Virus record (IMG/VR): IMGVR_UViG_3300044676_004736
Span: 1-37,613 of that record
Reading direction: 5' to 3' (one strand)
DNA: 37,613 nucleotides
Source of the DNA: a virus
Lineage: Duplodnaviria; Caudoviricetes
The notes under the pieces are model-generated. The model saw nothing but the letters and a program-made list of their open reading frames with translations, did no database searches and was not told the DNA's origin. The position numbers and the translations under genes were made by a program. Positions 655 to 36,502 of this stretch are shown here, one piece after another (within the stretch, counting starts at the first letter, position 1; each line of letters opens with the position of its first letter).

Positions 655-1213
655 TATTTCAGGCCCGATGCACGTGGGTAAGACCACACTGGCAAAGGCT
701 TTGGTGTACCACTACGAGCACTCGTATCGTAAGCCTATGGCTACACAACTACGTGACCTGCTCGATAAGTACAAGATCAAAGAGACACGTGAGAATCTAC
801 AGCGTATAGGCCAAGGCTTACGTGACTGTGACCCTGACGTGTGGGTGAAGGCATGGATGCGGGACAACGGCTTCCTTGTCATGGACAACCTAGTGATAAT
901 TGACGATGCACGTTACCAGAACGAGGTGGACTTGGCAGACATTGCTATCTACCTTGACCTACGTGATGCCGACACTCAGTGGGACAGGTTCAGAACCAGT
1001 GACAAGTACGACCCCGCTATCCTACGTAGTGATTGGAACAAGGCACGTGTACACAGGACTGAGACACAGCCACTGAACTTTGACAACAAGCCTACCTTAA
1101 TGATAAGTACACTAGATAGATCGCAAAAGGAAGTATTCGATGAGGTGTTGGGACTTATTTCCCCCCGTATCGAGCAACCAGTAAGAAAAGAAGTGATGGA
1201 GTTACCGTGGTAA
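644..1213 (+). CDS. Deoxynucleoside monophosphate kinase (P-loop)
   Basis: N-terminal ISGPMHVGKTT, plus RENLQRIGQGLR, DVWV and IIDDARYQNE, all typical of phage dNMP kinases. Confidence 0.85.
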   Translation: MIVSISGPMHVGKTTLAKALVYHYEHSYRKPMATQLRDLLDKYKIKETRENLQRIGQGLRDCDPDVWVKAWMRDNGFLVMDNLVIIDDARYQNEVDLADIAIYLDLRDADTQWDRFRTSDKYDPAILRSDWNKARVHRTETQPLNFDNKPTLMISTLDRSQKEVFDEVLGLISPRIEQPVRKEVMELPW

Positions 1214-1447
1214 ATGGCTAGATATGACTACAAGTGTCCCGGTGGGCACATCAACGAGGTGTCTTTTCCTATAGGTGAGGCACCCAAGACTATCGGGTGT
1301 CCTGAGAGGGAAGACGTACACCCTGAGTTAGATGAGTGTCCAGAAGGGGCTACTCGTATGCTCGCAACACACACCAGTTTCATGATCAACAAGGTGATGA
1401 GCCCACCTTCCAAGCGACTCAAACCTCAGCATTTAGGCAAAGCCTAG
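1214..1447 (+). CDS. FmdB-like zinc-ribbon protein
   Basis: MARYDYKCPGGH...CP...C pattern. Confidence 0.65.
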   Translation: MARYDYKCPGGHINEVSFPIGEAPKTIGCPEREDVHPELDECPEGATRMLATHTSFMINKVMSPPSKRLKPQHLGKA

Positions 1448-1455
1448 GAGACAAC

Positions 1456-1722
1456 ATGACACAACCAATAGGTGCGGTTCTAAGTACGGGTGCAGGTACC
1501 CGCTACGTTGAGATCGCTTCACACAGAGAATACATCGGCAGCATGGTCGATGCTTGTTGGCGTTGCGGCAGTCGATCGATTGTTGCCGAGACATATGGCA
1601 CAGGACTGGAGATCAGATGCCTCTTGTGCTGTCGTAACCAGACAGTAGACACAGCCACATGGAAGGCAGTGGTTATCTACGTAGCAGGTAAGCTTCAAGG
1701 AAAGAGCAGTTACTTTGCTTAG
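1456..1722 (+). CDS. Zinc-ribbon protein
   Basis: AGGAG SD before ATG 1456. CWRC...CLLC. Confidence 0.65.
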   Translation: MTQPIGAVLSTGAGTRYVEIASHREYIGSMVDACWRCGSRSIVAETYGTGLEIRCLLCCRNQTVDTATWKAVVIYVAGKLQGKSSYFA

Positions 1723-1787
1723 AATCCCTATCAACTTACACAGGAACAGTGCCGCTAAGTTGGTGGCTAAAGCATTCGAGGTTATCT

Positions 1788-3998
1788 ATGGCAGAGCAAA
1801 TACACACCCTTAACGAAGAGGTACGAGAGAACAGTGTGTTCTCTAGGTACCCGTACGGGGGGATATCCGGTCGAGGCAGAGGTAAGGACGTGTTCTTCAT
1901 TGCAAAGGCACCCTCCTACTATGCTGCTAAGAAAGGTATAGCGTTTGCTGACGAGTCTGGACAGTTCGTACTGCAACACATGAAGCGGAAAGGCTTCGAC
2001 GTTGGGCAGCTATACGTGACTTACATGATCAAGACACAGGCTAACAAGAACCGTCGCCCTACTCGTAAGGTGCTGGACTTGTCACTAGAGTACCTTGAAC
2101 GTGAGTTGGAGTTGGTCAAGCCTAAGCTGATAGTGGCACTGGGCACTGACGTGTACCGTACGTTCGGGATTAAAGGCAGTATCAACCAGACAAAGGGACG
2201 CATCTTCGACACTGAGTATGGTAAGTTGTTGGTACTCAACGACCCTACTATGTTCAACGTTCCCGGCAAAGGTACTGAGGTACCGCAGTTTGTTACTGGC
2301 ATGGATGCTATTCGTACATACCTCAATGGTTGGGTTGACCCACCTAAGCCGGGAGTGTTCGATCATGAGTGGCACACTGGTCATTACGGCGTAGACGTGG
2401 AGGTGGAAAATTATGAACGAGAAGAAGATGCTTACCTTTACTCAGTTGGTGAGGCTTCTACAGTCGCCCGAAGCGCAGTCACTACTGCGGATTGGTGGCC
2501 AGCCAAAACCGGAACACCAGTCATGCACAACGCCAAGTACGATATCAAGTGGCTCGAACGTGGAGGACAAAAAGTAAACCAGTTCGAGGACACGTTACTA
2601 GAGGCAGCGTTGCTTGGACACAAGCCACTGGCATTGAAAGACTTAATGGCTATCCACTTAGGTGGAGCACCTGACAAGTTCGCTAAGGTGGTGGGTACTG
2701 GTAAGAGCCGCAAACAGTACGCTGACATCCCTGACTTCTTGGACTACAACTCTAAGGACGCATGGGGTACGCTCGCACTGCACAACGTGTATCACCCACA
2801 AATTGTGAAGCGTGGACTGGAACCTATCTATGAGAAAGAGAAGAAGGTACTACGTGTACTGCTCGACATGGAGAAGGCCGGTATGCCACTGGACACTGAG
2901 CAGGTGAAGGCGTGGCGACTAGACCAGTTGAAGCGTATGGGCAGGGCAGAGAGGCGACTGCGGGAGCAGGACGTTGATCTGTCTGACCTTGACAGCATGC
3001 GTCAGAAGTTCTGGAAGGGTAAGCCTAAAGTCATACTGACAGCTAAGAGCAAGCTACCTAGTCTGTCTAAGCTGGACTTGGAAGAGAACAGGAGAGAGGG
3101 TGATGAGTGGGTCGATGATCTTATCGAATGGAAGGAAGCGCAGAAGTTTATCTCGACCTATCTTGATAACTGGATTGGAAAGGATTCACTGCACCCTACT
3201 TTCAATCAGTGTGGAACACAGACATGGCGATTTAGCTGTAGCAACCCCAACCTGCAAAACGTTACTAAACGTGGGGGGAGTCGTTTACCGTATATGTTCG
3301 CAGCACCAGAAGGGTTTACATTTGTCTCGGCAGATGCGTCGCAAGGCGAACTTAGAGAGATGGGTAATCAAGCCTTTCACTATGCCGGTGACACCGGGAT
3401 TGCTGAGTCGTATGCAGCAGGTATTGACATGCACTCAATGTCGGAGACAATCCCGTCGATCATTCGGGTTGCAGAGATCAAGGGCCAGCCGGTTCGTACG
3501 GTTGCTAAATCGTTCAACTTCAAGATTCTATACGGAGGAACGGGAGCAGGAATGGCTAAAGAGTACGGGGTACCCACCGCAGAAGGCGAGGCGATGATTG
3601 ATGGGTTCTACCAGAAGTTCCCCGCTATCAGGGAGGTGCACAACGAGTACAGGCATCAGGCACTGACCACTGGCTACGTGAAGACGTTGACTGGCCGACC
3701 GTTGTATGTACCACAAATGGTCATGGGCGAGGGACAGTTCCATGACAGGGCAGAGCGACAGGCTAAGAACTTCCCAGTACAGGGTGGCCTGATGGAAGTG
3801 ATCAAGGACGCTATGCTTAAGTTCCCTCAGTACTTGCGAATGCAGGTACACGACGAATTACTCTGGCTAGTTCCAGACAGCGAGGTGGCAGACTTTGTAG
3901 TAGAATTAGAAGAGAACCTAAACAGTGACCCGTACGACTGCATCCCCTACGTATGGGACATACACACTGGCAAAAACTGGGGCGAAGCGAAAGGCTAG
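1788..3998 (+). CDS. polA: Family A DNA polymerase with N-terminal uracil-DNA-glycosylase-like domain and 3'-5' exonuclease
   Basis: Exo motifs DVE, HNAKYD, YNSKD. Pol motifs DASQGELR, RTVAKSFNFKILYG, QVHDEL. UDG-fold remnant ELELVKPKLIVALG. GAGG SD favours ATG 1788. Confidence 0.95.
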   Translation: MAEQIHTLNEEVRENSVFSRYPYGGISGRGRGKDVFFIAKAPSYYAAKKGIAFADESGQFVLQHMKRKGFDVGQLYVTYMIKTQANKNRRPTRKVLDLSLEYLERELELVKPKLIVALGTDVYRTFGIKGSINQTKGRIFDTEYGKLLVLNDPTMFNVPGKGTEVPQFVTGMDAIRTYLNGWVDPPKPGVFDHEWHTGHYGVDVEVENYEREEDAYLYSVGEASTVARSAVTTADWWPAKTGTPVMHNAKYDIKWLERGGQKVNQFEDTLLEAALLGHKPLALKDLMAIHLGGAPDKFAKVVGTGKSRKQYADIPDFLDYNSKDAWGTLALHNVYHPQIVKRGLEPIYEKEKKVLRVLLDMEKAGMPLDTEQVKAWRLDQLKRMGRAERRLREQDVDLSDLDSMRQKFWKGKPKVILTAKSKLPSLSKLDLEENRREGDEWVDDLIEWKEAQKFISTYLDNWIGKDSLHPTFNQCGTQTWRFSCSNPNLQNVTKRGGSRLPYMFAAPEGFTFVSADASQGELREMGNQAFHYAGDTGIAESYAAGIDMHSMSETIPSIIRVAEIKGQPVRTVAKSFNFKILYGGTGAGMAKEYGVPTAEGEAMIDGFYQKFPAIREVHNEYRHQALTTGYVKTLTGRPLYVPQMVMGEGQFHDRAERQAKNFPVQGGLMEVIKDAMLKFPQYLRMQVHDELLWLVPDSEVADFVVELEENLNSDPYDCIPYVWDIHTGKNWGEAKG

Positions 3999-4000
3999 AC

Positions 4001-4834
4001 ATGCAAACGAATGTACTTACAGTTCCATGGGAGACACAGCACATCGTACCGATCGGTGACATACAGCTAGGAGCGGGGGGAGTATCCCTTGACACGTTAC
4101 AATCTGACGTTGACCGAGGCATGGCTAACGATGCGTTGTTCATAGGCATGGGTGACTACGTTGATAGTGAATCACCTAGTGGTAGACAGAAGCACAGGAG
4201 TGCAAACTTCTATGACTCTACCAATCAGGCGTTGAATGAAAACAGTGACCGTCAAATCGACACGCTCATGGAAATCTTTGAGCCTACTATTGGGCGGTGG
4301 TTGGGTCTTCATCAGGGGCACCACTACCATGACTACTTCAATGGGGCTACCACTGACACCAAGTTGTGCCAGCGACTAGAGGCTCCGTTCCTAGGCGACA
4401 CGGCCTTCACTCGTATCAAGTTCAAGCGAGGTAAGTCGGTGCAGAGTCTGACCATCTTTAGTACTCACGGTACTGGGTCAGGTGCTACACAGGCTGCTCC
4501 ACTCTCTAAGCTAGAAGGGCTGAGTAAGGGTATCGAGGCTGACATTTATTTGATCAACCACTTCGCCCGTAAGGGTGCGGTACCTGCTGATCGATTGTTC
4601 ATGGACAGGAAAGATCACATCAACCACAGTAAGCGGTGGTACGTGGCTACTGGTGGCTACATGGGAGCGTACACTGAGGGCTCTATGCTTGATGGTCGAC
4701 CCCAAGGCAGCTACGTAGAGAAGGCCATGCTCACCCCTACCACACTGGGTGGAGTTGTGATCAAGGCTGAGCCTATCCGTAAACGTGACGAGGGACAGGA
4801 CACTAGCTACATTGAGACAACGGTGACACTATGA
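4001..4834 (+). CDS. Calcineurin-like metallophosphoesterase
   Basis: GDIQLG, MGDYVD, GHH, THG and NH motifs in canonical order. ATG 4001 follows the pol stop. Confidence 0.8.
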   Translation: MQTNVLTVPWETQHIVPIGDIQLGAGGVSLDTLQSDVDRGMANDALFIGMGDYVDSESPSGRQKHRSANFYDSTNQALNENSDRQIDTLMEIFEPTIGRWLGLHQGHHYHDYFNGATTDTKLCQRLEAPFLGDTAFTRIKFKRGKSVQSLTIFSTHGTGSGATQAAPLSKLEGLSKGIEADIYLINHFARKGAVPADRLFMDRKDHINHSKRWYVATGGYMGAYTEGSMLDGRPQGSYVEKAMLTPTTLGGVVIKAEPIRKRDEGQDTSYIETTVTL

Positions 4835-4887
4835 TCGTAAAGTACACCAATGGCATCAAGTACAAGCTGGAGGGGAAGTACTGGTGA
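4831..4887 (+). CDS. 18-aa mini-ORF MIVKYTNGIKYKLEGKYW
   Basis: ATGA overlap with the upstream stop and GTGA overlap with the RNase H start. Confidence 0.5.
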   Translation: MIVKYTNGIKYKLEGKYW

Positions 4888-5324
4888 TACACATCTGGAC
4901 TGATGGAGCATGCAACGCAACTACACGTAACGGTGGTTGGGCTGCTGTCATTGAGCAGGACAAAGCGTTGGAGCGTCTGAGCGGGGCAGTGTACAACACG
5001 ACTAACAATCGTATGGAGTATACTGCTATCGTTCAGGCACTCGAATGGCTGTACTTGAAGACCCCTCTCGAAGAGCACATTGTGGTACATACCGACAGTA
5101 AGCTGGTAGTAGGTCACGTGCTAGAGGGACACAAGGTTAACAAGAACGCTGACCTAGTGAACAAGGTGAAGAACTGGGTGGAATCTGAGAGTACTCCACA
5201 TGTCACTATCGAATGGCATTCCCGTAACAGTAATGACTATCTCTCATGGTGTGACAAACAGGCCAAATACGAGAAGGAAACTCTTGACTCACGTGGCCCA
5301 CGTAAGCTACAATCAGTACTATAA
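4884..5324 (+). CDS. rnhA: Ribonuclease HI
   Basis: IWTDGAC, GGWAA, TNNRME, HTDS, and C-terminal CDKQA supply the D-E-D-D catalytic set. Confidence 0.93.
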   Translation: MIHIWTDGACNATTRNGGWAAVIEQDKALERLSGAVYNTTNNRMEYTAIVQALEWLYLKTPLEEHIVVHTDSKLVVGHVLEGHKVNKNADLVNKVKNWVESESTPHVTIEWHSRNSNDYLSWCDKQAKYEKETLDSRGPRKLQSVL

Positions 5325-5348
5325 CCCAAGCAGAAAGGAATTCCCCCC

Positions 5349-7055
5349 GTGAATCTATCAGACAATGCAAAGACGGTGATGGAGCGACGTTACTTGCTCC
5401 CCGGCGAGAAGCCAGAGGAATTATTCAGGAGAGTTGCACACCACATTGCATCGTTCAATGATTCAGAGGAACTAGAGGACAGCTTCTATGAGGCTATGAC
5501 TTCATTGAAGTTCTTGCCTAACAGCCCCACTCTAATGAATGCCGGCACTGGGCAGGGGACTCTCAGTGCATGCTTTGTTCTCCCGCTGGACGATACCATG
5601 GAAGGTATCATGAACACCGCTAAAGATGCAGCGTTGGTTCAGAAGTTCGGCGGGGGGACAGGCTTCTCGCTCAGTAAGATCAGACCCAAGGCAGCACCTA
5701 TCAGCACGACACATGGCAAAGCGTGTGGGCCGATCGCTGTACTGGAACATTTGAGTAGCGTTAGCAGACTGGTTACCCAAGGAGGTAAACGTGACGGAGC
5801 GAACATGGCGGTGCTTCACGTATCGCACCCCGATATCATGGACTTCATTACTTGCAAGCAGTTTGAAGGAGACATTCACAACTTCAATATCTCAGTTGGG
5901 GTGGACGCAAAGTTCATGGACGCAGTACGACACGACAGCCTCTATGCGCTCCGTGACCCAGCATCGAGGGCTACAACTGACACAGTAAGGGCGAGGGACA
6001 TCTGGAATGCAACCATCGATGGTGCGTGGCGCAATGGCGAACCGGGGATTATATTCCTCGATGCTGTCAACAAAGAACATTCTAAGCTTGGACTTGGAGA
6101 GATTACGGCAACTAACCCCTGTGGTGAACAGCCACTGCTGCCGAACGAATCTTGCAACCTCGGTTCTATCGATGTCTCTAAATTCATCGATGCCGGTACT
6201 TTTGACTGGGACAGTCTCGAAAGATACGTCAGACTAGGAGTACAGTTTCTTGACAACGTTATCGATGCTAACGAGTACGCAACTGAGGGAATTAGCAAAC
6301 AGACTCTTAGTACTAGAAAGATTGGACTTGGAGTCATGGGATTTGCGGACGCTCTCGTGCGACTGCGTATTCCTTATGACAGTGAGGAAGCTAGACACCT
6401 TGGCGGCAGACTCTTCCAGTTCTTTCGAGACGTTGCTGACCATGAGTCTGAAACACTGGCACTTGCAAGAGGCGCATACCCAGCATCGAATGACGGACGA
6501 TTCCGTAACGCATGCCGGCTTACTATTGCGCCAACCGGAACGATCTCAATGTTGGCTAACTGCTCATCGGGCATCGAACCTCTATTCGCTCTACGCTACA
6601 CCAAACAAAACATCCTTGACCAAGGAGATGGAAGCACTGCGGTAGAGTATGTGAATGACCAACTCTACAGTGACGTAGGGCACAAGGTAACTGAACGGCT
6701 TCTACGGGGGGAACCACTCTCGACAATGCGGCCTGATTTGACAGAAGTGTATAAGACATCAGGAGAGATAAGCGTTGACGGACATGTCAGGATGCAAGCT
6801 GCATTCCAACGATATTGTGATTCAGGAGTTAGTAAGACAATCAATCTCCCTAACTCAGCCAGTCGTGGAGATATTGCACAGGCGTATCTGCTCGCAGAAG
6901 CAGAGGGCTGTAAGGGAATCACTGTGTACCGATCGGGTAGCAGAGACAAAGAGGTTCTCACCGAGACTCTTGACCCGTGCCCTGAGTGCGGCAGTGAGGT
7001 GGCTAACGAGGAGGGATGCCATAAGTGCTACTCCTGTGGATGGAGTGCATGTTAG
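5349..7055 (+). CDS. nrdJ: Class II (adenosylcobalamin-dependent) ribonucleotide reductase
   Basis: PNSPTLMNAG, SACFV, TNPCGEQPL, CNLGS, IAPTGTIS, SKTINLP, KGITVYR, C-terminal CPEC...CYSCGWSAC. No beta-subunit gene adjacent. Confidence 0.93.
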   Translation: MNLSDNAKTVMERRYLLPGEKPEELFRRVAHHIASFNDSEELEDSFYEAMTSLKFLPNSPTLMNAGTGQGTLSACFVLPLDDTMEGIMNTAKDAALVQKFGGGTGFSLSKIRPKAAPISTTHGKACGPIAVLEHLSSVSRLVTQGGKRDGANMAVLHVSHPDIMDFITCKQFEGDIHNFNISVGVDAKFMDAVRHDSLYALRDPASRATTDTVRARDIWNATIDGAWRNGEPGIIFLDAVNKEHSKLGLGEITATNPCGEQPLLPNESCNLGSIDVSKFIDAGTFDWDSLERYVRLGVQFLDNVIDANEYATEGISKQTLSTRKIGLGVMGFADALVRLRIPYDSEEARHLGGRLFQFFRDVADHESETLALARGAYPASNDGRFRNACRLTIAPTGTISMLANCSSGIEPLFALRYTKQNILDQGDGSTAVEYVNDQLYSDVGHKVTERLLRGEPLSTMRPDLTEVYKTSGEISVDGHVRMQAAFQRYCDSGVSKTINLPNSASRGDIAQAYLLAEAEGCKGITVYRSGSRDKEVLTETLDPCPECGSEVANEEGCHKCYSCGWSAC

Positions 7056-7099
7056 TTTAGAGGATTTATTCCCCGGTTACTCATACGAAAGGAACAGAG

Positions 7100-7369: not shown

Positions 7370-7523
7370 ACCAGTCCTCGACGGTACAGTGGTGACTACT
7401 TCACCTATCGTGGCTGTCCACGGAGAGGCGTTAGAGACGAAGAACACGCTCTATCTACTAGGTGAGCCTCTGGAAGTCCCCTCTGAGGCACCTGCGGACT
7501 GTTGCGGGGGGAATTGTAGCTAG
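7356..7523 (+). CDS. 55-aa hypothetical protein (not in ORF track)
   Basis: AAGGAG SD. MSSGKPVLDGTVVTTSPIVAVHGEALETKNTLYLLGEP...DCCGGNCS. Its stop overlaps the next start. Confidence 0.7.
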   Translation: MSSGKPVLDGTVVTTSPIVAVHGEALETKNTLYLLGEPLEVPSEAPADCCGGNCS

Positions 7524-7980: not shown

Positions 7981-8107
7981 GAGCGGGGGGAAATAGTCTA
8001 CTAGGATTCGCCTGACAGGTCGAACTCAGAAGACACTGCTCAGAGGGTCGGCTCGAAGATCATCTCGGTTTATGACATGATCGGTTGGGTCGGCCCTCTA
8101 TTTATTT
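7981..8107 (+). ncRNA. Putative structured small RNA of unknown family
   Basis: Starts just downstream of the promoter and has no credible ORF. Two adjacent helical domains with G-U pairs valid only on the + strand. Confidence 0.55.
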
Positions 8108-8986: not shown

Positions 8987-9035
8987 GTGTCTCCTTTCTT
9001 CTCTTTAAGTATAGCGGGGGGATGGTACATACCAC

Positions 9036-9068
9036 AAACAAAAAGACCGGAGGTGTTCCCCCCGGCCT
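9036..9068 (-). terminator. Intrinsic terminator
   Basis: AGGCCGGGGG-gaaca-CCTCCGGTCT stem followed by TTTTGTTT, downstream of gene 9094-9381. Confidence 0.8.
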
Positions 9069-18264: not shown

Positions 18265-18315
18265 AAAGCGGGGGGAGACACCTTATACAGAAGTGTATAG
18301 GATGCCTTCCCCCCG
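18265..18315 (-). terminator. Long hairpin after the capsid genes (terminator or processing site)
   Basis: CGGGGGGA-a-GGCATC-c-TATACA-cttc-TGTATA-a-GGTGTC-TCCCCCCG followed only by CTTTG. Confidence 0.65.
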
Positions 18316-23400: not shown

Positions 23401-26400
23401 CGTGCCCCTTTATGGCTGCCTCTAAGTCACGGCCTGAAAGTTTACCCACCTTCGTTACCGCAGCGTTAAGATCAATCCAAGCTGTGTCTCCTGCACGTTT
23501 GAGATCGGCACGTTGTAGTGCGTTGATGTCCCAAATCTCCTGCATCTGTGGGAAGTACAAGTCCTCCCAGAAGTCACCTTCATACACAGATCGACTCTGA
23601 GGTGTAGGGTACTGACTGAACAGCTTCTCCCTAGTAGCCTTCAATGTCTGCTGTGTCTCAATGTTCAGCTTAGTCAACTCGATACCAGTGTCAATGAGCG
23701 TGTCGATGTTCTTCACACTAGACTGCGCCCCAGCACTTACAGCAGCTTCTTCTTGTACATCCTTTAGCAAGTGCTCAGATAGTACATTGTACTCAGGCAT
23801 TGGGTCAGAAGACTTCAGCACAGGGAAACCATGAGCAAGCAAATCGTCGTTTAACTCTTTCTGTCCAGCCATTTTACTTGTTGCGGTCTCTTCATACTTA
23901 GCTTGGAGTGCGAAGTAAAACTCCCCTGCCTCATCGAAATCCTCAGGGTCGAGGAATACTCCCGAACCTATGCGCCGTAGCTGTGCCACTTTATCGGAAC
24001 TCATACTAGAGATAGGCAAGTCAAAGTCTAATATCTCTCCACCTTCGGCCACCAACTCTTTCTCTACTACGTCACCAAAGTTGGCTGCTGCCTCTCTATC
24101 TGGTGCGAAGTACTGGCCGGGGCCTAGCTGTAGGTCTTCAGCTTTTATCTCACCACGAGCGACCATCCCTCCGTCTTTATTCTGGCCACGGAATATACGC
24201 ACCCCTGTCCCAGTAGATGCTAACTTAGTCTCAGCGGCCAGTGCGTCCGCAATTTCTTTCGAGTAGACACCCTTGGACATCTTACGTACACGTTCACCGG
24301 CAGCGTCCATCTGGGCATGCAGCCTGTCAGACACTTCAGTAACGATCTCGTCCATCTGCTTCTGTAGCTTATCTTTAACCTTCTGGTCTTTAGTGCTACG
24401 CATCTGTCGACGCAAGTGTGCATTCATCTCATAAGGCAAATCACGCAGGGCACTAGCAGACTGGTAAAACAGGTCTGTCTGATCGATAGCTTCCTGTGCC
24501 GATCGAGGTGCCACCCTACCAATAGAGTCAAACATTTCGGTGTACCGCCACTCAACAGCCTCAGGCTGGAACTTGTTCCACTCCAGCACCTTTTCCAGCG
24601 CATCCCGTTGCAACTGGTCGAAGTTGTCACGAGTCATGTTGCCCTCAAAGATAGCAGACCGGAGCAAGTGTCGGACATCGGGGGGAAGTTCCACTGCCTC
24701 TTCCAGAACTGTGTTCTGTGCCTTCTTAGTGAATGCCTCCGCACTTATGGTATCTACCACACTGCGTACTCTTGCAGGGTCACCAGTAGACGCAGCAATC
24801 CAAGCGATGTTACTCACTTCGTCTGTGAACTGGGATAAGCCGGGGGGAAGTTCTCCCTTAATTATGTTCTGTAATTCTGTGATCAGGTTCTCGTCAGCAC
24901 CCTGCTCTCGCAGTAGCTTATAGAACGTCTGGTTAAAATCCTTGAACCAAGCTGCACGTCGAACTCCACGTCCTAGTTCGGAGAAGAATTCCCCCCCGAA
25001 AGCTTTGAAAAAGCTCTGAGATATAGCGTTAGCCTTGTCTGCTAGCCCCGCTGTTGCTTCTTCTGAATAGAGTCCCTGCTGTTGCAAGTACTTCTGCGTT
25101 CCCACTTCTGTCAGGAAGGACTGCGGTGCTGCATCACCAACTAGATCGAGCGTCATGTGTCGGAACATACCGGGGTCAAGCTGCCATTTAACTGAGCCTT
25201 GTCCAAGCATAGCGAAGCTTACATCTTCTGCGAGATTCATTGGGCCGAACATTCCAAACGTAAGATGAGACAGTGAGAGTGGTCGAATCAAGAGTGGTTC
25301 GACCTTCTTCTGGTATGTCTCTGCTATCTTGGTAACGCTCTGGTCGAACACCTTAGCGAATTGATCTGCGTGTTGTGCGTCCAGCTTCATACGTTGTAAC
25401 AGTGACGTTACGTTCTCTACACGGTTAGGTGAAATACCTTTAACCACTTGGCCGGGAGCCGATGTGAATGGGTCTAGTGAGATACGTTGGCCACCCTGTA
25501 CAATGGCACGTCCCTCTCGTTCAGCTACCTGTGAGGCAATCTCAGCCGAGAAAGCTTCTGGGTCTAGCTTTACCAGCCGCTCTGTGTATTTAGCCCACGC
25601 CTGTTCACCAGCCTTAAGTGTAGGGGCTGAGTTGATTATGTCGTGTTCAAGGTGATTTAAGATGTTGTTGACACTGAATGGGCCGGCACCTGACATGTCA
25701 GAAGTGCCACGAGAAGCAAGGAAGGCTGCTGTGTCTTCTGGGTTCTTAGACAAGAGGTTCTCACCAAACGATGAGGCTATTGCCTGATGCACTCGTGTGC
25801 CTGTTTCTTTGACGAGTGTCTTAGCATGAGGCTTAAACAACTCTTTCAATACTGGTACCTGCTTTGCTCCTAGGATTGGGGCACCGATTACTTTAGCGGT
25901 TACTTTACCGGGGAACTGATCAACTGCATTAGCTGCATAGAGGGCAGGGCGTAGTGCCTTAGGTGCAACACGTGCCAACGCACCGGGAGCCCCGAAGCCT
26001 ACAAGGTTCAGTGGGTCAAAGATAATCTCTAGTCCACCCTTAACCCCCCAAGCTGTGTCAGCTTCCTCGTACGAACGTTTGAGTGCTTCATAAGTTTCCA
26101 TTATGGAAAGATTACGTACCTGCGTCCCCTTCGCATCAGCTATCTGCCGTCGTGCAATCTCGAACTCTTTCTCGAAACTCTGCTGGCCGGGAATAAGTGC
26201 AGAACCAATACCAAGACTAATAGCAGCCGTTGGCTTGTTGATGTTCTCCACCCACCAGTCAACTGTCTTTAGGGTACGAGACATCGCTCGCTTCCATAGT
26301 GGTAAGTCTTTAGCCTGTGGCAACACTTGCTCAATTACCTCTGGGCTGAACTTAGGTAGTTCCTCTCCCTGATACTCAGCAAGGTACTTAGTGAAGTCAG

Positions 26401-26557: not shown

Positions 26558-27856
26558 TTAGTTTCTCCTAAATTGTGCAAACACACCCCTACCTGACGGG
26601 ACGCTCTGCTCCTGTAGTTTCTTAGTAAGGTCTAACCCTAACACATTACTGATCTGCTGTACAGAATTACGGTCACCTGCGTCTAGTGCTTGGAAGGCAG
26701 CCGCTAGTGGTATGTCACTACGCAACTCACCCAGCTTACCTGTTGATGCAGGTCGACCCAGTATCTCATTCTTTAGTGGTACATCCTCACCCAGTGGTGT
26801 AGCACCACGAGTACCCAGCGACAGATCATCAGTCAACTGTGAAGCACGTGCTGGCTGTAGGTTGACCTTACTTTCCCCACCAAGGTTGAAGAAGTCCAAC
26901 ACTGCGTCACTGATCTCAAAATCAACTGGTTTCCCCCCGACGTTGATAACACCTGAGGTGTCGATCGATTCCGCACCAGCTTGGATAGCTTGGGCAATAG
27001 CTGCTGCACCGGGGCCCTGCTCTGTTAGGAGAGCCTGTTCCTCTAGTGCAATACGGTCTTTACCCAACTCTCGTTCAAGTTCGAGTCTATTCTCAGACAA
27101 TTCCAACTGACGCTGGGCAGTCTGCAAACCCTGTAGTGAGAGCATTGTCTCTAAGGCAAACTGGTTCTGTTTCAAATCAAGTTCTTCACCCGCCACAGTA
27201 ATACGAGCGTTAGTCTCGGCTAGGCCGGCCTTCACAACATCTAGTGCCAGCTTAGTCTGCTCTAGGTCTGCTGGGTTAAGGAGTGTTACCTCACCAGTCT
27301 GCATGTCCTTGACACGGTAATGTACATCACCATTAGGTAGTGTAATAGGCGTGAAGTCGATGACTGGGGCCTCTGTGGGGGGAGGAGCAGTTGCGATACC
27401 GTCAACAGCAGGTCCAGATACAAGGGCACCAGTTTCATCCCTGACTGTAGCGAACTCTGCCTCTGGGTCTTCAAACGGAGTACTTGATGCATCCTGCGCT
27501 AAGAACTCTTCCAGTGGTAGTTTACTCTCTGCCTCTAAGCGAGCCGTCTCTTCTGCTTCCGCAGCACGAGTGCGTTCAGTATGGAAGCGGTTACCCTGAT
27601 CTAGTACTTCCTGTTCAGGCAGTTTGATGTTCCTGTTAGTGCGAGTACGCCAGTCTACGCCCCTCTCAAGAGCACCACCCTTGGCAGTGTCAATGTCCTC
27701 CTTGGGCATAGCATTCTGCTTCCTGATGGCTAACCAGACTTTATCATCTGGCTCAGAAATCTTACCTGACAGCAACGCAGCATTGTACTCTTCAGGGGTT
27801 ATCTGCCCAAGAATAAGTGCTTCTAGTGCTTTGATACTCTGCTGTTCATTTGGCAT
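26558..27856 (-). CDS. Probable internal virion (ejection) protein
   Basis: 432 aa with a coiled-coil core, adjacent to the giant protein. Confidence 0.55.
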   Translation of the reverse strand: MPNEQQSIKALEALILGQITPEEYNAALLSGKISEPDDKVWLAIRKQNAMPKEDIDTAKGGALERGVDWRTRTNRNIKLPEQEVLDQGNRFHTERTRAAEAEETARLEAESKLPLEEFLAQDASSTPFEDPEAEFATVRDETGALVSGPAVDGIATAPPPTEAPVIDFTPITLPNGDVHYRVKDMQTGEVTLLNPADLEQTKLALDVVKAGLAETNARITVAGEELDLKQNQFALETMLSLQGLQTAQRQLELSENRLELERELGKDRIALEEQALLTEQGPGAAAIAQAIQAGAESIDTSGVINVGGKPVDFEISDAVLDFFNLGGESKVNLQPARASQLTDDLSLGTRGATPLGEDVPLKNEILGRPASTGKLGELRSDIPLAAAFQALDAGDRNSVQQISNVLGLDLTKKLQEQSVPSGRGVFAQFRRN

Positions 27857-28082: not shown

Positions 28083-29804
28083 TTAGAGAGGCGATGACTC
28101 AGACCCCCTCTGACTAGCATCCTGTTGATCAGGGTCACCTGTGTTGTTCGCTACGTCACGACCGGGACCGGCCGCCCCTGCACGAGAGGCTACTTCTGTA
28201 GCTTCGGCCTGTCGTGCTCGCTCAATCACTTGCTCGAACAGGTCACGCAGGTTCTCATCTTCAAGAATTTGTTCCGCTGTGATCGTACCCAATGTTTCTT
28301 GGACACGTGGATTAAGTTCAAGTCTGTCCTTTCGGATACCACGAAGCACGTCTTCTGCGTTTAGGTTCGGGTGCAACTCTCGGATACCATTGTATCGATC
28401 GAGTGTACCAGCCTGAATTTCCTGTGCGATAGACTGCTTCTTGCCAAACTCGTTGTCTGGTTCCAACACATTGACTGTGACCTTAACTGGGCGTGAGCCT
28501 TTGAACATGCGAGGGGACACCTCACCGAACTCCTGCTCAGTTGTACCAAGGGAGATGTTCACTGGGTGCTCCACGGCGTACTCCATGTAGGCACCAAGCT
28601 TACGTGCGAGTTGGGTCAGCATCATTTCGGATGCCTGTGCCATACCCTGATAACGTAATCGTGCTTGGCCTAGCTGGATGTTCTGATCTCGACCGGATGT
28701 GGTACCGGGGTTACGTAAGCCGGCAAGTGGTCGTGGCGCAGAAGCCTCACTAATAATCGTTGATGTATCGAATCGATGTGCTGCCAGTACGTTCTCTGGT
28801 AGGAGTGGCGTAATAGAATCTAGTGTTGTGCCCTCCGGTAACTCATGGATACGTCCATAGTCTAGCTTGATTCCTGCGAGTTGTGCTGCTCCCGGCCCTG
28901 ATGCTGTACGTACAGGCCATCCAGATGCTTTGAGCACAATGTCCGTGATCGAGTAGTTTCGAGATTCACTAGCAAGCACAGACCGCAAGAACCTGAGATA
29001 GCCCATATAGCGGTGTTCGGGCTTACGGTCTTTACTGATGAAGCCAAGTCCAGAGTCTCCTATTGTGTATGGGTGGTCACCCAACTTGTGTACAGTGTAG
29101 TCAAGTACAGGTTCATTGTCTACCAGTACGAGGCGATCTTTCTTACCCCAGTACTCGATAACCTCTACAAACTGCGTCAGTTTCTTATCGGTAGAGAACT
29201 CACCATAGATAGCTTTCACATCCCCCACCATTTTGTTATTAATCTGAATAACCCACTGCGGGTCTTCATTGAATGGGTCAGGGTATACCTCACTTGGATG
29301 CAAGACTTGGTGTTTAAACGGCATGTACTCAGACCGGATAAAGTCGTTAGCTTCCTTTTCCTCTTCAGTTCCCCCCGACTTAGGTACATCCCAGTCCTCC
29401 ACATAGGTGGTCTTTGAAACTGACATGCCATATATGGCTAGCTGTTTGTTCGCCATGCGGTAAGGGGATGAAGATGCTTGCATTTCTATCCATGTGAGTG
29501 ATGCACCATAGAATCGAGACTGCTTGGAGGCCCGTTCAGTCGCTTGTGGGCTTGCACTCTTGCGTGGTACTGTGATGTCACGGAACTGTGGTGATATGTG
29601 GTCTACTGCTGTGTCAACTAACGATCGAGCAGTTGGGAGCAAAGTGCCTTGGGCTCTGTACTCATTAGGTAATCCGATGTCAATGTCTTCTGACAGGGCG
29701 TACCACTTTTCATCGAGTTCAAATTCAGCATGAAGATTGGCATAGTGCGCCTTCATCTCTAGTGCTAACTTACGCAGATCATCTGCATTCTTGACAACAC
29801 TCAC
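28083..29804 (-). CDS. Portal protein
   Basis: About 570 aa downstream of terL; ARSLVDTAVD, QLAIYGMSVSK, HPSEVYPDP, VEVIEYW, TSGR. GGAGG SD favours GTG 29804. Confidence 0.88.
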   Translation of the reverse strand: MSVVKNADDLRKLALEMKAHYANLHAEFELDEKWYALSEDIDIGLPNEYRAQGTLLPTARSLVDTAVDHISPQFRDITVPRKSASPQATERASKQSRFYGASLTWIEMQASSSPYRMANKQLAIYGMSVSKTTYVEDWDVPKSGGTEEEKEANDFIRSEYMPFKHQVLHPSEVYPDPFNEDPQWVIQINNKMVGDVKAIYGEFSTDKKLTQFVEVIEYWGKKDRLVLVDNEPVLDYTVHKLGDHPYTIGDSGLGFISKDRKPEHRYMGYLRFLRSVLASESRNYSITDIVLKASGWPVRTASGPGAAQLAGIKLDYGRIHELPEGTTLDSITPLLPENVLAAHRFDTSTIISEASAPRPLAGLRNPGTTSGRDQNIQLGQARLRYQGMAQASEMMLTQLARKLGAYMEYAVEHPVNISLGTTEQEFGEVSPRMFKGSRPVKVTVNVLEPDNEFGKKQSIAQEIQAGTLDRYNGIRELHPNLNAEDVLRGIRKDRLELNPRVQETLGTITAEQILEDENLRDLFEQVIERARQAEATEVASRAGAAGPGRDVANNTGDPDQQDASQRGSESSPL

Positions 29805-30096
29805 GGATTGCATCCTCCAATTCTTGTCGTGTCTTCTTGGCTCCTGTCCAATCATTTAAATGGCCTAGCCACACGTCAAAGTCCGTAGAGGATATGAAGC
29901 GATTCGCAGCTTTCCTCTGTACTACTCTTTCAATCATAACACGCCGCTTGTAGCTACGTCCTCTGTATTGTTTGGGTACCTCTCGTCCTGAGACTACACC
30001 GTGTCCCATAAGATCGTCGTGTGTGGTTGTGATCATGGCGTGTAGTAAGTTTAGTTCGGGGCGGGGGGAATCCCATTTCACCGGCTGTGGGGGCAT
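29779..30096 (-). CDS. Hypothetical protein between terL and portal
   Basis: AAGGAG SD; short overlaps with both neighbours. Confidence 0.65.
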   Translation of the reverse strand: MPPQPVKWDSPRPELNLLHAMITTTHDDLMGHGVVSGREVPKQYRGRSYKRRVMIERVVQRKAANRFISSTDFDVWLGHLNDWTGAKKTRQELEDAIRECCQECR

Positions 30097-31709
30097 TCTA
30101 ACATCTCCTTCTCACTGCTGTGGTTTATACCACATAGTTCTAGTGGGTAGTCTGGGCGTTTCTGTACTCTGACGTAGCACTCGAAAGGATTACGTTTGCC
30201 CCATAGTTCAGGGTCAAAGTCAAAATCTGTTACTGGCCCAAAGGTTACGTAGTCTTTGCCTTGTACAGCTTCTTTAGATACTGTGGGTACTACGCTCTTA
30301 GCTGCTTCGTAGGCCAGTGCTAGGGAAATAACCGTATCGTCATGTCCGTACAGCCCTTCGAGTTTACCCTTTGCGTTGTAGCCGAAGCCGGCCAGTTCAT
30401 CTAAGGTAGCTTGGTGGTACACCATTACTTCGTCGTTACGAATAGCTGTGCGTAGTTCGCCTAGGATTAGTTCACGGTTGTTACGTGTTGTGTGCCAACC
30501 TAGGTTTGTTTCTGATGTTTTGTAGAGGCGGTGCTTAGGGTACGGTTTACGGGTGTTACCTTTCAGGTCTACGTTTGAAGTAAAACTACGAAGAATGGAA
30601 GTCCCTTCCCCTTGCTTCTCTATGATGACGAAGGGAGTACCGTAGCGCACCAGCAGTCGGTAGGCTTCATCGGAGAACTTGTCCAGTCCCTCATTAGTTT
30701 TGCAAACGGCGACCTGCTGACCCATAGAATCGAGTATATGGAGAACAGCAGAGTCTGAGCCTCCCGGTGCAGGGTCGATTCCTGCTGAGTAGGTTTCCTC
30801 TGGGTCGTACTCGTGGAACAAGTGTGAGTAATTCTCGAAAGGACTACCGGATTTAATGGGCATACGGTGTAGAGCATCGATGTCGAAGTATGGTTCTTGG
30901 ACAACGGCAAATGCATCTGCAACGGTGAGTGGGTATTCTTGTCTGTGCTTACCGGGGGACTCTGCGTCTTTGAGGGTGGCCTCCCACCATGCTCTGTCTC
31001 TTCCCGGTCTAACGTTATACTTGATAAAAATAGGAAGAAAGCTGTTCTTTCCAAGAGAAGCCTTTTCCCAGATGTCGTAGAATAAGTTACCCTTGCCGTT
31101 GGCTGTGGAAATTCCAATGAGTTTACCGTGTTCAACTGTTGGAAGGATAGCTGTATAAATGGTTCGGGCGTACTCTTGGAAGGCCCACTCATCAAGGATA
31201 ACAACTGTGGCAGACTCACTTCGTCCAGCTTCCTCACCGGCGGCAAACGAAAGTATCCTGCTGTCATTGGAAGGGAACTCGAACTCTGTGTCATTGTTTT
31301 TTCCTACTGGTATTGTCATCCACAAGGGAAGGTTACGGTTGATAAAGTCACATCTCCACTTGAATCTAGTTGAGGCAGTACCATCCTTTGAGATGACCAC
31401 GACTGTGGCGTTAGGACGGAAGCGAGAGAACCAGAGAGCAAGTGCTGCATATATCCACGACACCCCAATTTGTCGAGCCTTCAAGACTATGATGCGGTTC
31501 TCGGTGAAGGTGGCTGCCACTAAGGTCTTTAGGTGGGGCCAGTTCTCAAAACGAATGTTCCCCTTTACAGGGTCAGAGATTCTGACATAGTTACTTATCC
31601 AGTGCCATGGGTCGACTGAACATTTGGCTAGTTCTTCTAGCTGACGATCGGGGGGAAATCCCTCAATTTCAAGGTCAGTGTATGGCTCACTCTTGGTCTG
31701 GGTCACCAA
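30078..31709 (-). CDS. terL: Terminase large subunit
   Basis: Walker A LKARQIGVS, Walker B VILDE, coupling STANG, nuclease GIDPA and HDDTVISLALA. Confidence 0.96.
   Translation of the reverse strand: MVTQTKSEPYTDLEIEGFPPDRQLEELAKCSVDPWHWISNYVRISDPVKGNIRFENWPHLKTLVAATFTENRIIVLKARQIGVSWIYAALALWFSRFRPNATVVVISKDGTASTRFKWRCDFINRNLPLWMTIPVGKNNDTEFEFPSNDSRILSFAAGEEAGRSESATVVILDEWAFQEYARTIYTAILPTVEHGKLIGISTANGKGNLFYDIWEKASLGKNSFLPIFIKYNVRPGRDRAWWEATLKDAESPGKHRQEYPLTVADAFAVVQEPYFDIDALHRMPIKSGSPFENYSHLFHEYDPEETYSAGIDPAPGGSDSAVLHILDSMGQQVAVCKTNEGLDKFSDEAYRLLVRYGTPFVIIEKQGEGTSILRSFTSNVDLKGNTRKPYPKHRLYKTSETNLGWHTTRNNRELILGELRTAIRNDEVMVYHQATLDELAGFGYNAKGKLEGLYGHDDTVISLALAYEAAKSVVPTVSKEAVQGKDYVTFGPVTDFDFDPELWGKRNPFECYVRVQKRPDYPLELCGINHSSEKEMLECPHSR
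30119..30134. promoter_or_regulatory. Palindromic element TGTGGT-TTAT-ACCACA (copy 2, inside terL 3' end)
   Basis: Identical to 20366-20381 and a few nt upstream of the SD of gene 30096. Confidence 0.65.
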
Positions 31710-32046: not shown

Positions 32047-32052
32047 ACCTTT

Positions 32053-32080
32053 AGTATATCAGTTTTTAATTTTTTTGCAA
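32053..32080 (-). promoter_or_regulatory. Promoter of the morphogenesis block, probably leaderless
   Basis: TTGCAA-16 nt-TATACT with extended TG and an AT-rich upstream tract. The ATG lies 7 nt after the -10. Confidence 0.65.
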
Positions 32081-32154
32081 GTTTTAAAAATTTTGAGTCA
32101 GACAAGATGATTTATAGTGGCTAGGGTCGAACCGAATCATACCCTCATCCGATA

Positions 32155-32654: not shown

Positions 32655-32711
32655 TATCAGGTAACGAAATTGAATAGTGGTTCTCCACCACACTAACAAA
32701 GTGAGAGTTTG

Positions 32712-33913: not shown

Positions 33914-34216
33914 ATGCTTAAAGTAACTTTGTACATACCACAATCGAGGCTAACAGCTTCATACACAATCGAAACTGAACTACGCAATCTAACGTGGGTA
34001 ACGGGGGGAATGACAGCCTACTCAGCTAGAGGCGAGTGGGTAGCACCTAACGGTGAATTAGTCGATGAGCCTGTGGAGGTGCGAGAGTACATCGTGCAGG
34101 ATAACGCATTAGCAGCGTTTGAGGCTGGCTTGCAGCGTACCATCAGGGAACTGAAAGGGTTAGGTGAAGAGTCGGTACTAACAACTAGACAGGGAATAGA
34201 GGTCAACTATGATTAA
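33914..34216 (+). CDS. Small early protein, probable ferredoxin-like/PII-like fold
   Basis: GGMTAYSARGEW...GELVDEPV...LGEESVL pattern. Confidence 0.7.
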   Translation: MLKVTLYIPQSRLTASYTIETELRNLTWVTGGMTAYSARGEWVAPNGELVDEPVEVREYIVQDNALAAFEAGLQRTIRELKGLGEESVLTTRQGIEVNYD

Positions 34217-35646: not shown

Positions 35647-35735
35647 GGCACCTGATTATATGTGCATAGGCAGTCAATGCGACTGCGATCAAGCGCACGA
35701 GTGTGACATATACTGTCACGGAGAGGATGGTTCGT

Positions 35736-36032
35736 ATGAAGTATTTAGTAAGCGACACGATCACAGAGTTCAAGTCCTACTGGGTTGAAGCTGAATCGGA
35801 AGGGGCAGCGCAAGAGTTGGTAGACCAACACGCAACAGATGAGGGTTACATCGGAAGGCTAGAAGCAGCCTTGAAGAACCTGCTGCAAGCACAGCGCAAC
35901 GGTGACTTCCAAGACTTAGACAACGCAATGTTTGAGGCTGAGCAAGTATTCCTAAACGGTTCACAGTTGCTTGAGTTCGTTGATCGAGGCATAACCGACA
36001 GGTTTCAACAGATAGAGGGAACAGATGATTAA
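35736..36032 (+). CDS. Acidic early protein (VEA motif family)
   Basis: GAGGA SD; YWVEAESEGAAQELV. Start could be 35727. Confidence 0.7.
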   Translation: MKYLVSDTITEFKSYWVEAESEGAAQELVDQHATDEGYIGRLEAALKNLLQAQRNGDFQDLDNAMFEAEQVFLNGSQLLEFVDRGITDRFQQIEGTDD

Positions 36033-36120
36033 GATAGGTAAGCTAGGCAACATCACGTGGTATCGTTGCCCTGACTGTGGTATGAACAACACTAGACAGG
36101 TGTGTGACTTCTGTGCTTAA
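36025..36120 (+). CDS. 31-aa zinc-finger microprotein (not in ORF track)
   Basis: GAGGG SD; MIKIGKLGNITWYRCPDCGMNNTRQVCDFCA. Confidence 0.65.
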   Translation: MIKIGKLGNITWYRCPDCGMNNTRQVCDFCA

Positions 36121-36133
36121 AGTGGGACACATC

Positions 36134-36502
36134 ATGGTAAAGCGCATTATATTCTGGGTCGTAGTGGTTGTACTTCTGGGTACATTCACTGGGTGCAGCG
36201 CACCGACCAACGTACAGACAACGGTTCGACTCGCAAGAGTCATTGATGGTGACACCTTCGTGACACAACGGGGGGAGGTTATCCGATTGGCTGGTGTCGA
36301 CACACCGGAGCGGGAAGAACCTGATTATTTGCGAGCGACAATAGAATTGAGAGGCGAACTGTTACGGCAGGACATTACCCTTGACAGGCGTGGTGTTGGG
36401 AAGTATGGTAGGACAATAGCGTGTGTCTATGTTGGGCAGAAGTCCATCGATGAACACATGATCAGAGCGGGTTACCGCAGATGGGACGGAACGAAGTGCT
36501 AG
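36134..36502 (+). CDS. Thermonuclease (SNase) family lipoprotein
   Basis: Signal peptide with lipobox-like FTGC; RVIDGDTF, IRLAGVDTPE, KYGRTIA. Confidence 0.88.
   Translation: MVKRIIFWVVVVVLLGTFTGCSAPTNVQTTVRLARVIDGDTFVTQRGEVIRLAGVDTPEREEPDYLRATIELRGELLRQDITLDRRGVGKYGRTIACVYVGQKSIDEHMIRAGYRRWDGTKC

Follow-up and report, generated by a model that had tools for sequence, protein, structure and literature searches.

An octamer private to a family of tailed phages, evenly spaced along each strand, and its possible role as a priming map

In the present study, we analyzed a stretch of 37,613 nucleotides, IMG/VR record IMGVR_UViG_3300044676_004736 (hereafter the window), which is a fragment of a phage genome and carries the octamer CGGGGGGA in 28 exact copies, 18 on the + strand and 10 on the - strand. 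The octamer is a selected DNA-level signal throughout a family of phages, and it is private to them, being no word of the sampled likely host group. It is probably a replication signal, and its reader is most likely encoded by the phage, strand-specific, and of a reach of a few kilobases. The explanation that we favor, with a probability of roughly 45%, is that CGGGGGGA is a hard-wired priming map, marking the starts of new strands on the single-stranded template.

The octamer in the window and in its phage family

The 28 coordinates and strands given in the initial annotation are all exact (Table 1), and the 18 copies said to extend to the longer form CGGGGGGAA do so. Under Markov models, 0.43-0.49 copies are expected at orders 1-2, 0.75 at order 3 and 2.6 at order 4, and CGGGGGGA is the top 8-mer at each of these orders; the excess, put earlier at about 25-fold, is thus real, although that figure is too low when set against the low-order expectation. 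At order 5, the expectation is 6.8. At order 6, the octamer falls outside the top list because the 7-mers CGGGGGG (30 copies) and GGGGGGA (32 copies) are almost wholly the motif itself, and this is no refutation of the enrichment at orders 1-5. The G runs of the window comprise 33 of six, 16 of five and one of seven, and 28 of the 33 runs of six have C before and A after them; hence most such runs do stand in the context of the motif, as had been noticed. The five near-misses named at that time are present, whereas a sixth, TGGGGGGT, had been overlooked. Single-mismatch variants number 12, which is about chance, with the exception of three with T at position 1.

Codons do not explain the octamer, as had been supposed. 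When synonymous codons of 42 genes were shuffled 1000 times with the proteins kept, the mean was 0.6 copies and the maximum 4, against 21 observed. Copies occur in all three frames in sense and antisense alike, that is, in six coding registers, and are divided into 12 sense, 9 antisense and 7 intergenic ones (p = 0.008 for the last). Nor is the octamer an artefact of assembly: independently assembled contigs of the runs X2 and X3 have identical letters, without gaps, at all of the 17 sites within 1-20000, the part covered by this comparison.

The family consists of phages of ~39-48 kb, and CGGGGGGA is found in five deep lineages of it, whose PolA proteins are 32-80% identical. It is the top 8-mer in the close relatives L001, L032, L033, L235, L236, L238 and L239, and the top or second 8-mer in the distant relatives G407 (34 copies, 1.0 expected), G408 (21, 1.2), L244 (9, 0.5) and L261 (6, 0.4). 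The genome G766 has 21 copies, and the reversed word, used as a control, occurs 0, 1 and 1 times in G407, G408 and G766, respectively. On a PolA tree of 17 rows, six rows (the five deep lineages) have CGGGGGGA, and nine have clade-specific variants (GGAGGGGGAG; GCGGGGGGCA and GGGGGGYA; AGGGGGGAA; GGGGGACG); the remaining two, L268 and L258, are ambiguous, the latter with six copies of GAGGGAGGCGC, some at ribosome-binding positions. The word of the G406 clade is GGAGGGGGAG and that of the L240 clade CGGGGGGC, these labels being taken from top-word lists, some of them on loci of only 6-8 kb. In all variants, the run of five to six G is invariant and the base before it varies. In the pooled flanks, C is at -1 in 123 of 146 and a purine follows the A in 116 of 146, with nothing farther out. 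Outside the family, 54 RNR-related phage loci, including phages with SAR202-like RNR, have 0-3 copies each, and CGGGGGGA is in none of 30 distant TerL loci.

Individual sites are conserved at short distances and turn over at longer ones. In L235 and L239, at 72-73% nucleotide identity, seven of eight sites are kept; in L001, L032 and L033, 0 of 4, 1 of 3 and 2 of 6 are kept, and the density is maintained all the same. The view that the octamer is a selected DNA-level signal, first proposed from the window alone, is therefore borne out by the codon shuffle, by conservation, by turnover at constant density, and by the evenness along each strand described below.

The coefficient of variation (CV) of the gaps between copies on a strand is 0.29-0.68 on all ten strands of five genomes, against ~0.9 for random placement, with p < 0.05 on six of the ten. 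On the two strands of each genome it is 0.68 (p 0.07) and 0.36 (p 0.003) in the window, 0.29 (p < 1e-4) and 0.44 (p 7e-4) in G407, 0.42 (p 0.002) and 0.62 (p 0.12) in G408, 0.44 (p 0.019) and 0.66 (p 0.13) in G766, and 0.58 (p 0.015) and 0.68 (p 0.33) in G406, where the word is a variant and the two strands bear 17 and 6 copies. For control 6- and 7-mers of similar count the median CV is 0.94-0.96, and none of 1708 and none of 2219 reach a CV of 0.36 or lower. On most strands, copies are 2-3.5 kb apart on average; the sparser strand of G408 has a mean gap of 4.3 kb and that of G406 one of 7.9 kb. Pooling of the two strands weakens the evenness in the window and in G407; therefore, the constraint seems to act per strand. 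Pairing between + and - sites is significant in G407 only (p ~0.01-0.03), not in the window or G408. At two places in the window, opposite-strand copies are 39-42 nt apart, and each of these two inverted pairs also forms part of a predicted RNA hairpin. When 15 of 64 parts of viral_contigs were scanned for inverted pairs, 122 loci were obtained, none from this phage family; those inspected were mostly hairpins in high-GC phages.

Other words and other contigs also attracted attention. The viral contig L393 (60% GC), with no match to the family core proteins, has six CGGGGGGA in 12 kb (0.7 expected), four of them lone. The distant TerL-related phages L006-L026 have Chi-like words of their own, GGTGGCGG in 4-9 copies (0.02-0.04 expected) or GGCGGCGG in 13-21 (~1.2 expected), and GGTGGCGG occurs 7-8 times in the host loci L049, L075 and L088 (~0.6 expected). 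Some k-mer lists are dominated by short tandem or array repeats, such as TGCTAAAA (113 copies in L086) and CCAGACAC (18 copies in L157), and likewise in L158.

Replication genes and a possible priming map

Priming is the function most plainly absent from the gene set of the family, and for this reason a priming map is favored here. The MCM-like DUF3987 helicase would unwind the genome, the template 3'-G CCCCCC T-5' would be read with its G as a loosely specified flanking base, and a primer pppG-G-G-G-G-G-A would be made at intervals of 2-3.5 kb, in one direction or the other. Evenness along each strand is the expectation for a process of finite reach, and a primer begun on a run of template C would agree with an invariant G run whose preceding base varies. 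In the cryptic-base logic of priming sites of T7 gp4, DnaG and archaeo-eukaryotic primases (AEPs), template pyrimidines likewise follow a flanking base that is specified only loosely. As for the enzyme, we suggest tentatively, by analogy with CCPol and its partner MP, that PolA could be made primer-independent through the SSB-like protein and/or a zinc ribbon. A host primase or RNA polymerase directed to CGGGGGGA by the SSB-like protein or the zinc ribbon is a less likely alternative. CCPol-MP primes de novo, its first nucleotide being mostly a purine opposite template C (PMC7581432); A-family polymerases can prime when bound to a partner with an oligonucleotide/oligosaccharide-binding (OB) fold (PMC7581432, bioRxiv 2022.12.02.518924 and PMC10201439); and the SSB gene of PolA-SSB pairs is placed between those for the polymerase and the helicase (bioRxiv 2022.12.02.518924).

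The conserved replication block of the family comprises a DUF3987 helicase, an SSB-like protein, a Cas4-like nuclease, AAA_24, ERCC4, a zinc ribbon, UDG-PolA, a metallophosphoesterase and RNase H. The first four genes lie just upstream of ERCC4 in L239, beyond the edge of the window. The SSB gene directly follows the helicase gene in 13 loci, and the Cas4-like, AAA_24 and ERCC4 genes adjoin the helicase gene in 14-18. The helicase was modelled with an MCM-like fold and a winged helix at the C terminus (predicted local distance difference test, pLDDT, 61; Foldseek E 8e-7). That of the SSB-like protein has a beta domain and a winged helix (pLDDT 80); the former has weak Foldseek matches to OB folds (Stn1, RPA, SSB, PrgE; E of at least 0.027), and the latter, with Z 7-8.6, is generic. 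PolA is of the A family with intact catalytic motifs, including the invariant motif-A glutamate, E534. In hhalign comparisons, the zinc ribbon reached 73% with the zinc-binding domains of primases of integrated elements, 3.5% with the RNR ribbon and 8% with T7 gp4, which is a weak resemblance; its profile matched generic ribbons among PDB sequences. The likeness to primase domains counts in favor of the priming map, and so does the looser -1 base in L245 and L265, the two lineages without the ribbon. The ESM Atlas gave unnamed clusters only. Trees of the helicase, SSB, Cas4-like and metallophosphoesterase proteins (the last a quick tree) were too poorly resolved to single out a co-varying reader. 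UDG and PolA are fused in the window, L174, L175, L260 and L268, and are separate open reading frames (ORFs) in L173, L240, L244, L245, L252-L254, L258, L261 and L265. Several members also have genes for a dATP/dGTP diphosphohydrolase and a nucleoside deoxyribosyltransferase (L321:7411-8274, with homologues in eight loci), a possible sign that bases are modified in some clades.

By Pfam, PHROG and phmmer searches, which a highly divergent enzyme could escape, no primase was found in the complete genomes G406, G407 and G408 or in the window with L239. The Pfam input was 49 of 49 frames of at least 140 aa (or start-trimmed) of G408, 40 of 40 of the window with L239, and selected ORFs only of G407 and G406. 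Matches to PHROG 'primase' profiles fell on the helicase half of fused profiles or on a profile of helicase length only. Among 1472 six-frame ORFs from five genomes, none was matched by any of six primase queries at E <= 0.5, and the sole match to a profile built from four DnaG-type primases was AAA_24 (E 0.22). In the nearest integrated homologues, from Dehalococcoidia, a DnaG-type (Toprim/CHC2/DUF3854) primase is adjacent or fused in four of four, and clustered iterons are present in three. These are the integrase-bearing elements L327-L330, with the DUF3987 helicase and the DnaG-type primase, the iteron clusters of three being TGTCAG/TGACAG. Near the helicase gene of the phages, no perfect iteron cluster was seen. 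According to PMC4889955, 98% of polymerase-encoding double-stranded DNA viruses encode a primase, and DUF3987 helicases usually adjoin one. That this widespread family has dropped its primase, and uses an MCM-like helicase, an SSB of OB fold and winged helix resembling RPA2/Stn1, a free zinc ribbon, and a full-length replicative PolA priming itself at a strict G6 word set into both strands at intervals of a few kb, is a speculative proposal, less likely than not.

Several points weigh against a priming map. The OB fold of the SSB-like protein is based on the weak Foldseek matches mentioned above. The zinc ribbon aligns with the zinc-binding domain of T7 gp4 at only 8%, and no Pfam family of primase zinc-binding domains (PF08273/PF01807) is among the best 25 of 41 families matched. 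It is neither necessary nor sufficient for the word: L245 and L265 keep G-run words and have no zinc ribbon, whereas L258 has the ribbon, but a different helicase and just six copies of another word. The searches could also have missed a highly divergent primase. Four of the ten strands have no significant evenness, and a Chi-like stop would give the same even spacing. As a control, the proven primase octamer of NrS-1 was found in one copy, inside the origin repeats; a priming grid dispersed over a genome thus has no validated precedent that we could find. CCPol-MP has no strict consensus (PMC7581432), whereas recognition of CGGGGGGA is all-or-none. The motif-A glutamate of Pol I excludes ribonucleotides (same source); PolA keeps E534 and therefore would make DNA primers, whereas primers of RNA are suggested by the conserved RNase H. 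Finally, the zinc ribbon and the helicase are only candidate readers. The contrast of L258 hints at the helicase as the reader, and it is a single case. In that locus, an AAA_25 ATPase (L258:2261-3163) replaces the DUF3987 helicase, and none of six ORFs tested has a primase match.

Alternative explanations and the host genomes

The main rival is that the word acts as a private, Chi-like stop signal for a nuclease encoded by the phage, which we regard as unlikely, yet less so than the other alternatives below. The phage's MCM-like helicase and Cas4-like exonuclease, with the AAA_24 annealase and the SSB-like protein, would stop or load a recombinase at CGGGGGGA; phage DNA would be spared and recombination-dependent replication seeded, and host DNA, poor in the word, would be degraded for nucleotides. 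The Cas4-like, AAA_24 and ERCC4 genes conserved beside the helicase in 14-18 loci, the presence of nucleotide-salvage genes, all-or-none recognition together with per-strand evenness, and the scarcity of CGGGGGGA in the host all fit this explanation, and recombination-primed replication would account for the missing primase on one strand. However, lagging strands would need priming even so, no Chi-binding domain was identified, and the 17 versus 6 copies per strand in G406 suit mostly one-way replication over two-way protection. We know of no phage nuclease with a Chi of its own, which also counts against this possibility.

It is distinctly unlikely that CGGGGGGA serves for loading or orienting the helicase, the winged helix of the DUF3987 protein binding the duplex octamer and (re)loading there, as at dispersed iterons or KOPS-like marks (KOPS, FtsK-orienting polar sequences). 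The MCM-like model with its C-terminal winged helix suits such a role, and in integrated homologues iterons are clustered next to the gene, no such cluster being found near that of the phage; L258, the sole member seen with the AAA_25 helicase, is without the G6 word. Furthermore, the site bound by Cch2 doubles as a preferred priming site (PMC7581432). However, ~30 loading sites in a 45-kb genome meet no evident need, the iterons of the integrated homologues (TGTCAG/TGACAG) are unlike CGGGGGGA, and the L258 contrast is a single case. Helicase loading also leaves priming unexplained, and may be a part of the priming map.

A third explanation is that the phage has copied a signal read by its host, such as an AddAB/RecBCD Chi, an uptake sequence or a self-mark of a defence system; we consider this improbable. 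The host is probably a member of Dehalococcoidia/SAR202, judging from sequence similarity: the named cellular matches of the RNR are SAR202, Dehalococcoidia or Chloroflexi at 55-57%, the best 80 of 344 genome loci are titled Dehalococcoidia, SAR202 or Chloroflexota nearly throughout (one is 'uncultured bacterium'), and helicase homologues occur in 3 of 401 genomes of the Dehalococcoidia class, no control having been run in other taxa. Each of 80 Dehalococcoidia loci has 0-3 copies of CGGGGGGA. The phage-like density of 744 per Mb was seen in none of 5 complete genomes, 401 Chloroflexota genomes and 251 Dehalococcoidia genomes; the highest in the latter two sets is ~230 per Mb, less than one third. 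These tallies include seven genomes flagged as unpublished (G043, G150, G178, G232, G277, G349 and G612), from which no quoted maximum is taken. In samples of two of the densest genomes, CGGGGGGA ranks 766 and 4589, at the level of composition. No clear replichore polarity was seen in five genomes: orientation is mixed in G490, G081, G247 and G562, and the octamer is partly polar in G601, with only 18 copies in 2.4 Mb. In Dehalococcoidia L333-L343 (G353, G588, G490, G455, G505 and G533), a repetitive extragenic palindromic (REP)-like element, CCCCCTCTG...TCTCCCCCCG-loop-CGGGGGGAGA, has CGGGGGGA as its hairpin arms, and the modest excess in hosts is due to such hairpins or to G-rich composition.

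A G-rich, non-palindromic, all-or-none octamer does resemble Chi, the same letters form both arms of the REP-like hairpin in at least six Dehalococcoidia genomes, and the true host, being only inferred, could fall outside the samples. Against a host-read signal stand the densities and ranks just given, the missing polarity, the phages with SAR202-like RNR that have no CGGGGGGA, and variants that follow phage clades. The phage copies are also lone half-sites, none of the 28 having a C-rich arm within 20 nt upstream. Known Chi-rich phages have one-stranded, end-clustered sites and mostly no recombination module (PMC12315714). A host Chi is not supported: CGGGGGGA is not over-represented in the sampled Chloroflexota/Dehalococcoidia and has no clear replichore polarity, the host itself being inferred, and the phage layout also speaks against it, with copies per strand of 18/10, 19/15, 12/9 and 9/12, evenly spread, and a recombination module of the phage's own. 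Likewise unsupported are a DNA uptake sequence (DUS) or highly iterated palindrome 1 (HIP1), at ~230 or fewer per host Mb at composition level and with a non-palindromic word; KOPS, with no terminus-directed skew of orientation in the five host-group genomes; and a REP-like hairpin in the phage, where 21 of 28 copies are in genes and the upstream C-rich arm is missing. The host-derived candidates of the initial annotation (Chi, uptake sequence) thus find no support in the likely host group, and sites for a phage protein, with the candidate readers named above, fit best of its three candidates.

Even less probable is a virion-related signal, either nick sites in packaged DNA, as in T5 and phiKMV, or sites for terminase or the ejection machinery. 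It would agree with a word that is phage-private, dispersed and heritable by clade, and with a structural module common to the family. However, the nicks of T5 and phiKMV are on one strand, opposite-strand copies 39-42 nt apart at two places would mean near double-strand breaks, and there is no conserved nickase, the HNH and SNase genes being sporadic. That no protein reads the octamer (mutational drive, slippage, G runs as oxidation sinks or hairpin parts) is hardly credible: two pairs do lie in predicted RNA hairpins, but the flanks are fixed, the runs have exactly six G (33 of six against 16 of five and one of seven) and no cloud of near-misses, spacing is even, and the word is conserved over PolA identities of 32-40%.

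Further features and relation to known systems

Relatives of the window phage reach 44-45 kb, and L239 spans the gap between the last and first genes of the window, which encodes TerL, a GP7-type major capsid protein, tail genes, UDG-PolA, RNase H, class II RNR and dCMP deaminase. Its best holders are estuary metagenomes; in the phage collection no cultured relative was found, the best identity being 22-26%. The features are listed in Table 1.

Table 1. Copies of the octamer, relaxed copies and selected genes in the window
Feature	Position	Strand	Context
CGGGGGGA	1160..1167	-	antisense in dNMP kinase
CGGGGGGA	1856..1863	+	sense in UDG-PolA (YGGI); retained in L235/L236/L239
CGGGGGGA	4074..4081	+	sense in metallophosphoesterase; retained in relatives
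CGGGGGGA	5342..5349	-	intergenic, RNR start; retained in relatives
CGGGGGGA	5651..5658	+	sense in RNR (FGGGT); retained in relatives
CGGGGGGA	6705..6712	+	sense in RNR (LRGE); not retained in L235-L239
CGGGGGGA	7505..7512	+	intergenic
CGGGGGGA	7984..7991	+	intergenic, where two gene blocks converge
CGGGGGGA	9015..9022	+	intergenic
CGGGGGGA	9057..9064	-	intergenic; 5' arm of terminator-like hairpin (9044-9068, -)
CGGGGGGA	12981..12988	-	sense in tail fibre
CGGGGGGA	13436..13443	+	antisense in tail fibre
CGGGGGGA	13826..13833	+	antisense in tail fibre
CGGGGGGA	15220..15227	-	sense in 569-aa structural gene
CGGGGGGA	16243..16250	-	sense in 569-aa structural gene
CGGGGGGA	16553..16560	+	antisense in 280-aa structural gene
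CGGGGGGA	18269..18276	+	intergenic; with 18308 closes long predicted RNA hairpin (z -4.8)
CGGGGGGA	18308..18315	-	intergenic; partner arm of 18269 hairpin
CGGGGGGA	21782..21789	+	antisense in 2042-aa protein
CGGGGGGA	22587..22594	-	sense in 2042-aa protein
CGGGGGGA	24679..24686	+	antisense in 2042-aa protein
CGGGGGGA	24841..24848	+	antisense in 2042-aa protein; retained in L032, L033
CGGGGGGA	26932..26939	-	sense in 432-aa protein
CGGGGGGA	29370..29377	-	sense in putative portal gene
CGGGGGGA	30062..30069	+	antisense in small ORF
CGGGGGGA	31649..31656	+	antisense in TerL
CGGGGGGA	34002..34009	+	sense in early gene
CGGGGGGA	36269..36276	+	sense in SNase-like gene
Relaxed copy TGGGGGGA	3272..3279	+	
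Relaxed copy TGGGGGGA	21007..21014	-	
Relaxed copy CGGGGGGGA (G7)	24990..24998	-	
Near-miss TGGGGGGT	near 26044	-	
Relaxed copy TGGGGGGA	27376..27383	+	
ERCC4 nuclease gene, 3' end	1..330	+	
Small Cys4 zinc-ribbon gene, candidate reader	1456..1722	+	immediately 5' of PolA in 17 aligned family loci
UDG-fused family A DNA polymerase, candidate priming enzyme	1749..3998	+	
RNase H	4884..5324	+	in 13 of 25 clustered family loci

In the window, CGCG is strongly avoided (3 against 78 expected), and CAGCTG, CTGCAG, CTCGAG and AGATCT are absent, which suggests host restriction; the avoidance of CGCG is common to L235-L241, L245 and L246, and other clades are without it. ATCGAT occurs 27 times, 5-fold over the 5.5 expected at order 1, an excess mostly accounted for at order 4. 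Window positions 32050-32700 are AT-rich and non-coding, with loose GTAAC/GTAAT repeats and three TGTGA-N6-(T/G)CAC boxes (~32156, 32306 and 32390), which we take to be CRP-like; this region is a possible terminus, origin or early control region. The 2042-aa protein (20429-26557, - strand) has no Pfam or PHROG match, and its residues ~790-830 look by eye like a putative ADP-ribosyltransferase domain of polyvalent proteins.

A literature search, with subscription papers and supplements outside its scope, found no relevant paper on CGGGGGGA, TCCCCCCG or GGGGGGA and none on an even priming grid in phages. A proposal on TV-Pol was reportedly made by Iyer in 2008. DUS, HIP1 and KOPS are chromosome-wide features of hosts, and DUS have inverted pairs in terminator-like hairpins. 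The octamer shares with them about one copy per kb on both strands and occasional DUS-like inverted pairs in terminator-like hairpins; however, it is sparse in the sampled hosts, is non-palindromic unlike HIP1, has no near-miss cloud unlike DUS, and no polarity unlike KOPS. Sites of T7 gp4/DnaG and of the NrS-1 AEP are likewise short, non-palindromic template words with a possible zinc-ribbon reader, those of the NrS-1 primase-polymerase being 5'-TTTGGTTA-3' and GTG (PMC8718748). In the present phage family, by contrast, no primase catalytic domain was found, and the NrS-1 octamer occurs once in an origin cluster, against an even grid here. The Chi-rich phages LLS, MD8 and P1, as described in PMC12315714, also have a G-rich, non-palindromic octamer, strongly over-represented and written through coding sequence. 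Theirs are host words on one strand near an end, mostly with no recombination module, whereas CGGGGGGA is on both strands, evenly spread, unenriched in likely hosts, and accompanied by the phage's own module.

The closest likeness may be to the PolA-SSB primase of the SCCmec element (staphylococcal cassette chromosome mec), that is, CCPol-MP with the Cch2 helicase. According to PMC7581432 and bioRxiv 2022.12.02.518924, it combines an A-family polymerase, an OB-fold SSB (here predicted) and a helicase, with no DnaG or AEP primase; it starts mostly with a purine opposite template C, and its helicase site and priming site are linked. That system belongs to an integrative element of Firmicutes, whereas the present phages are of lytic type, with a full UDG-exonuclease-polymerase enzyme, an SSB-like protein with an extra winged helix encoded away from the polymerase, and an extra zinc ribbon, and priming is only proposed. 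There is also a strict genome-wide octamer here, against a loose preference at one origin there. The new part of our findings is an evenly spaced octamer in a primase-less setting.

The octamer marks members of this family in metagenomes. How priming proceeds in the few polymerase-encoding double-stranded DNA viruses without a primase can be examined in this family with oligonucleotides and purified proteins, because its candidate proteins are few and completely listed and its site is a defined one of 8 nt that varies naturally between sister clades. If CGGGGGGA is a private Chi or self mark, the phage would discriminate its own DNA from that of the host without modification. If these phages indeed use a PolA that proofreads and primes itself at a strict start word, the PolA-SSB class would be extended from a staphylococcal element to phage replisomes, and the polymerase would possibly be a useful enzyme. 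The replisome of these phages would then be primase-free and programmed by sequence, with its priming map written into the genes.

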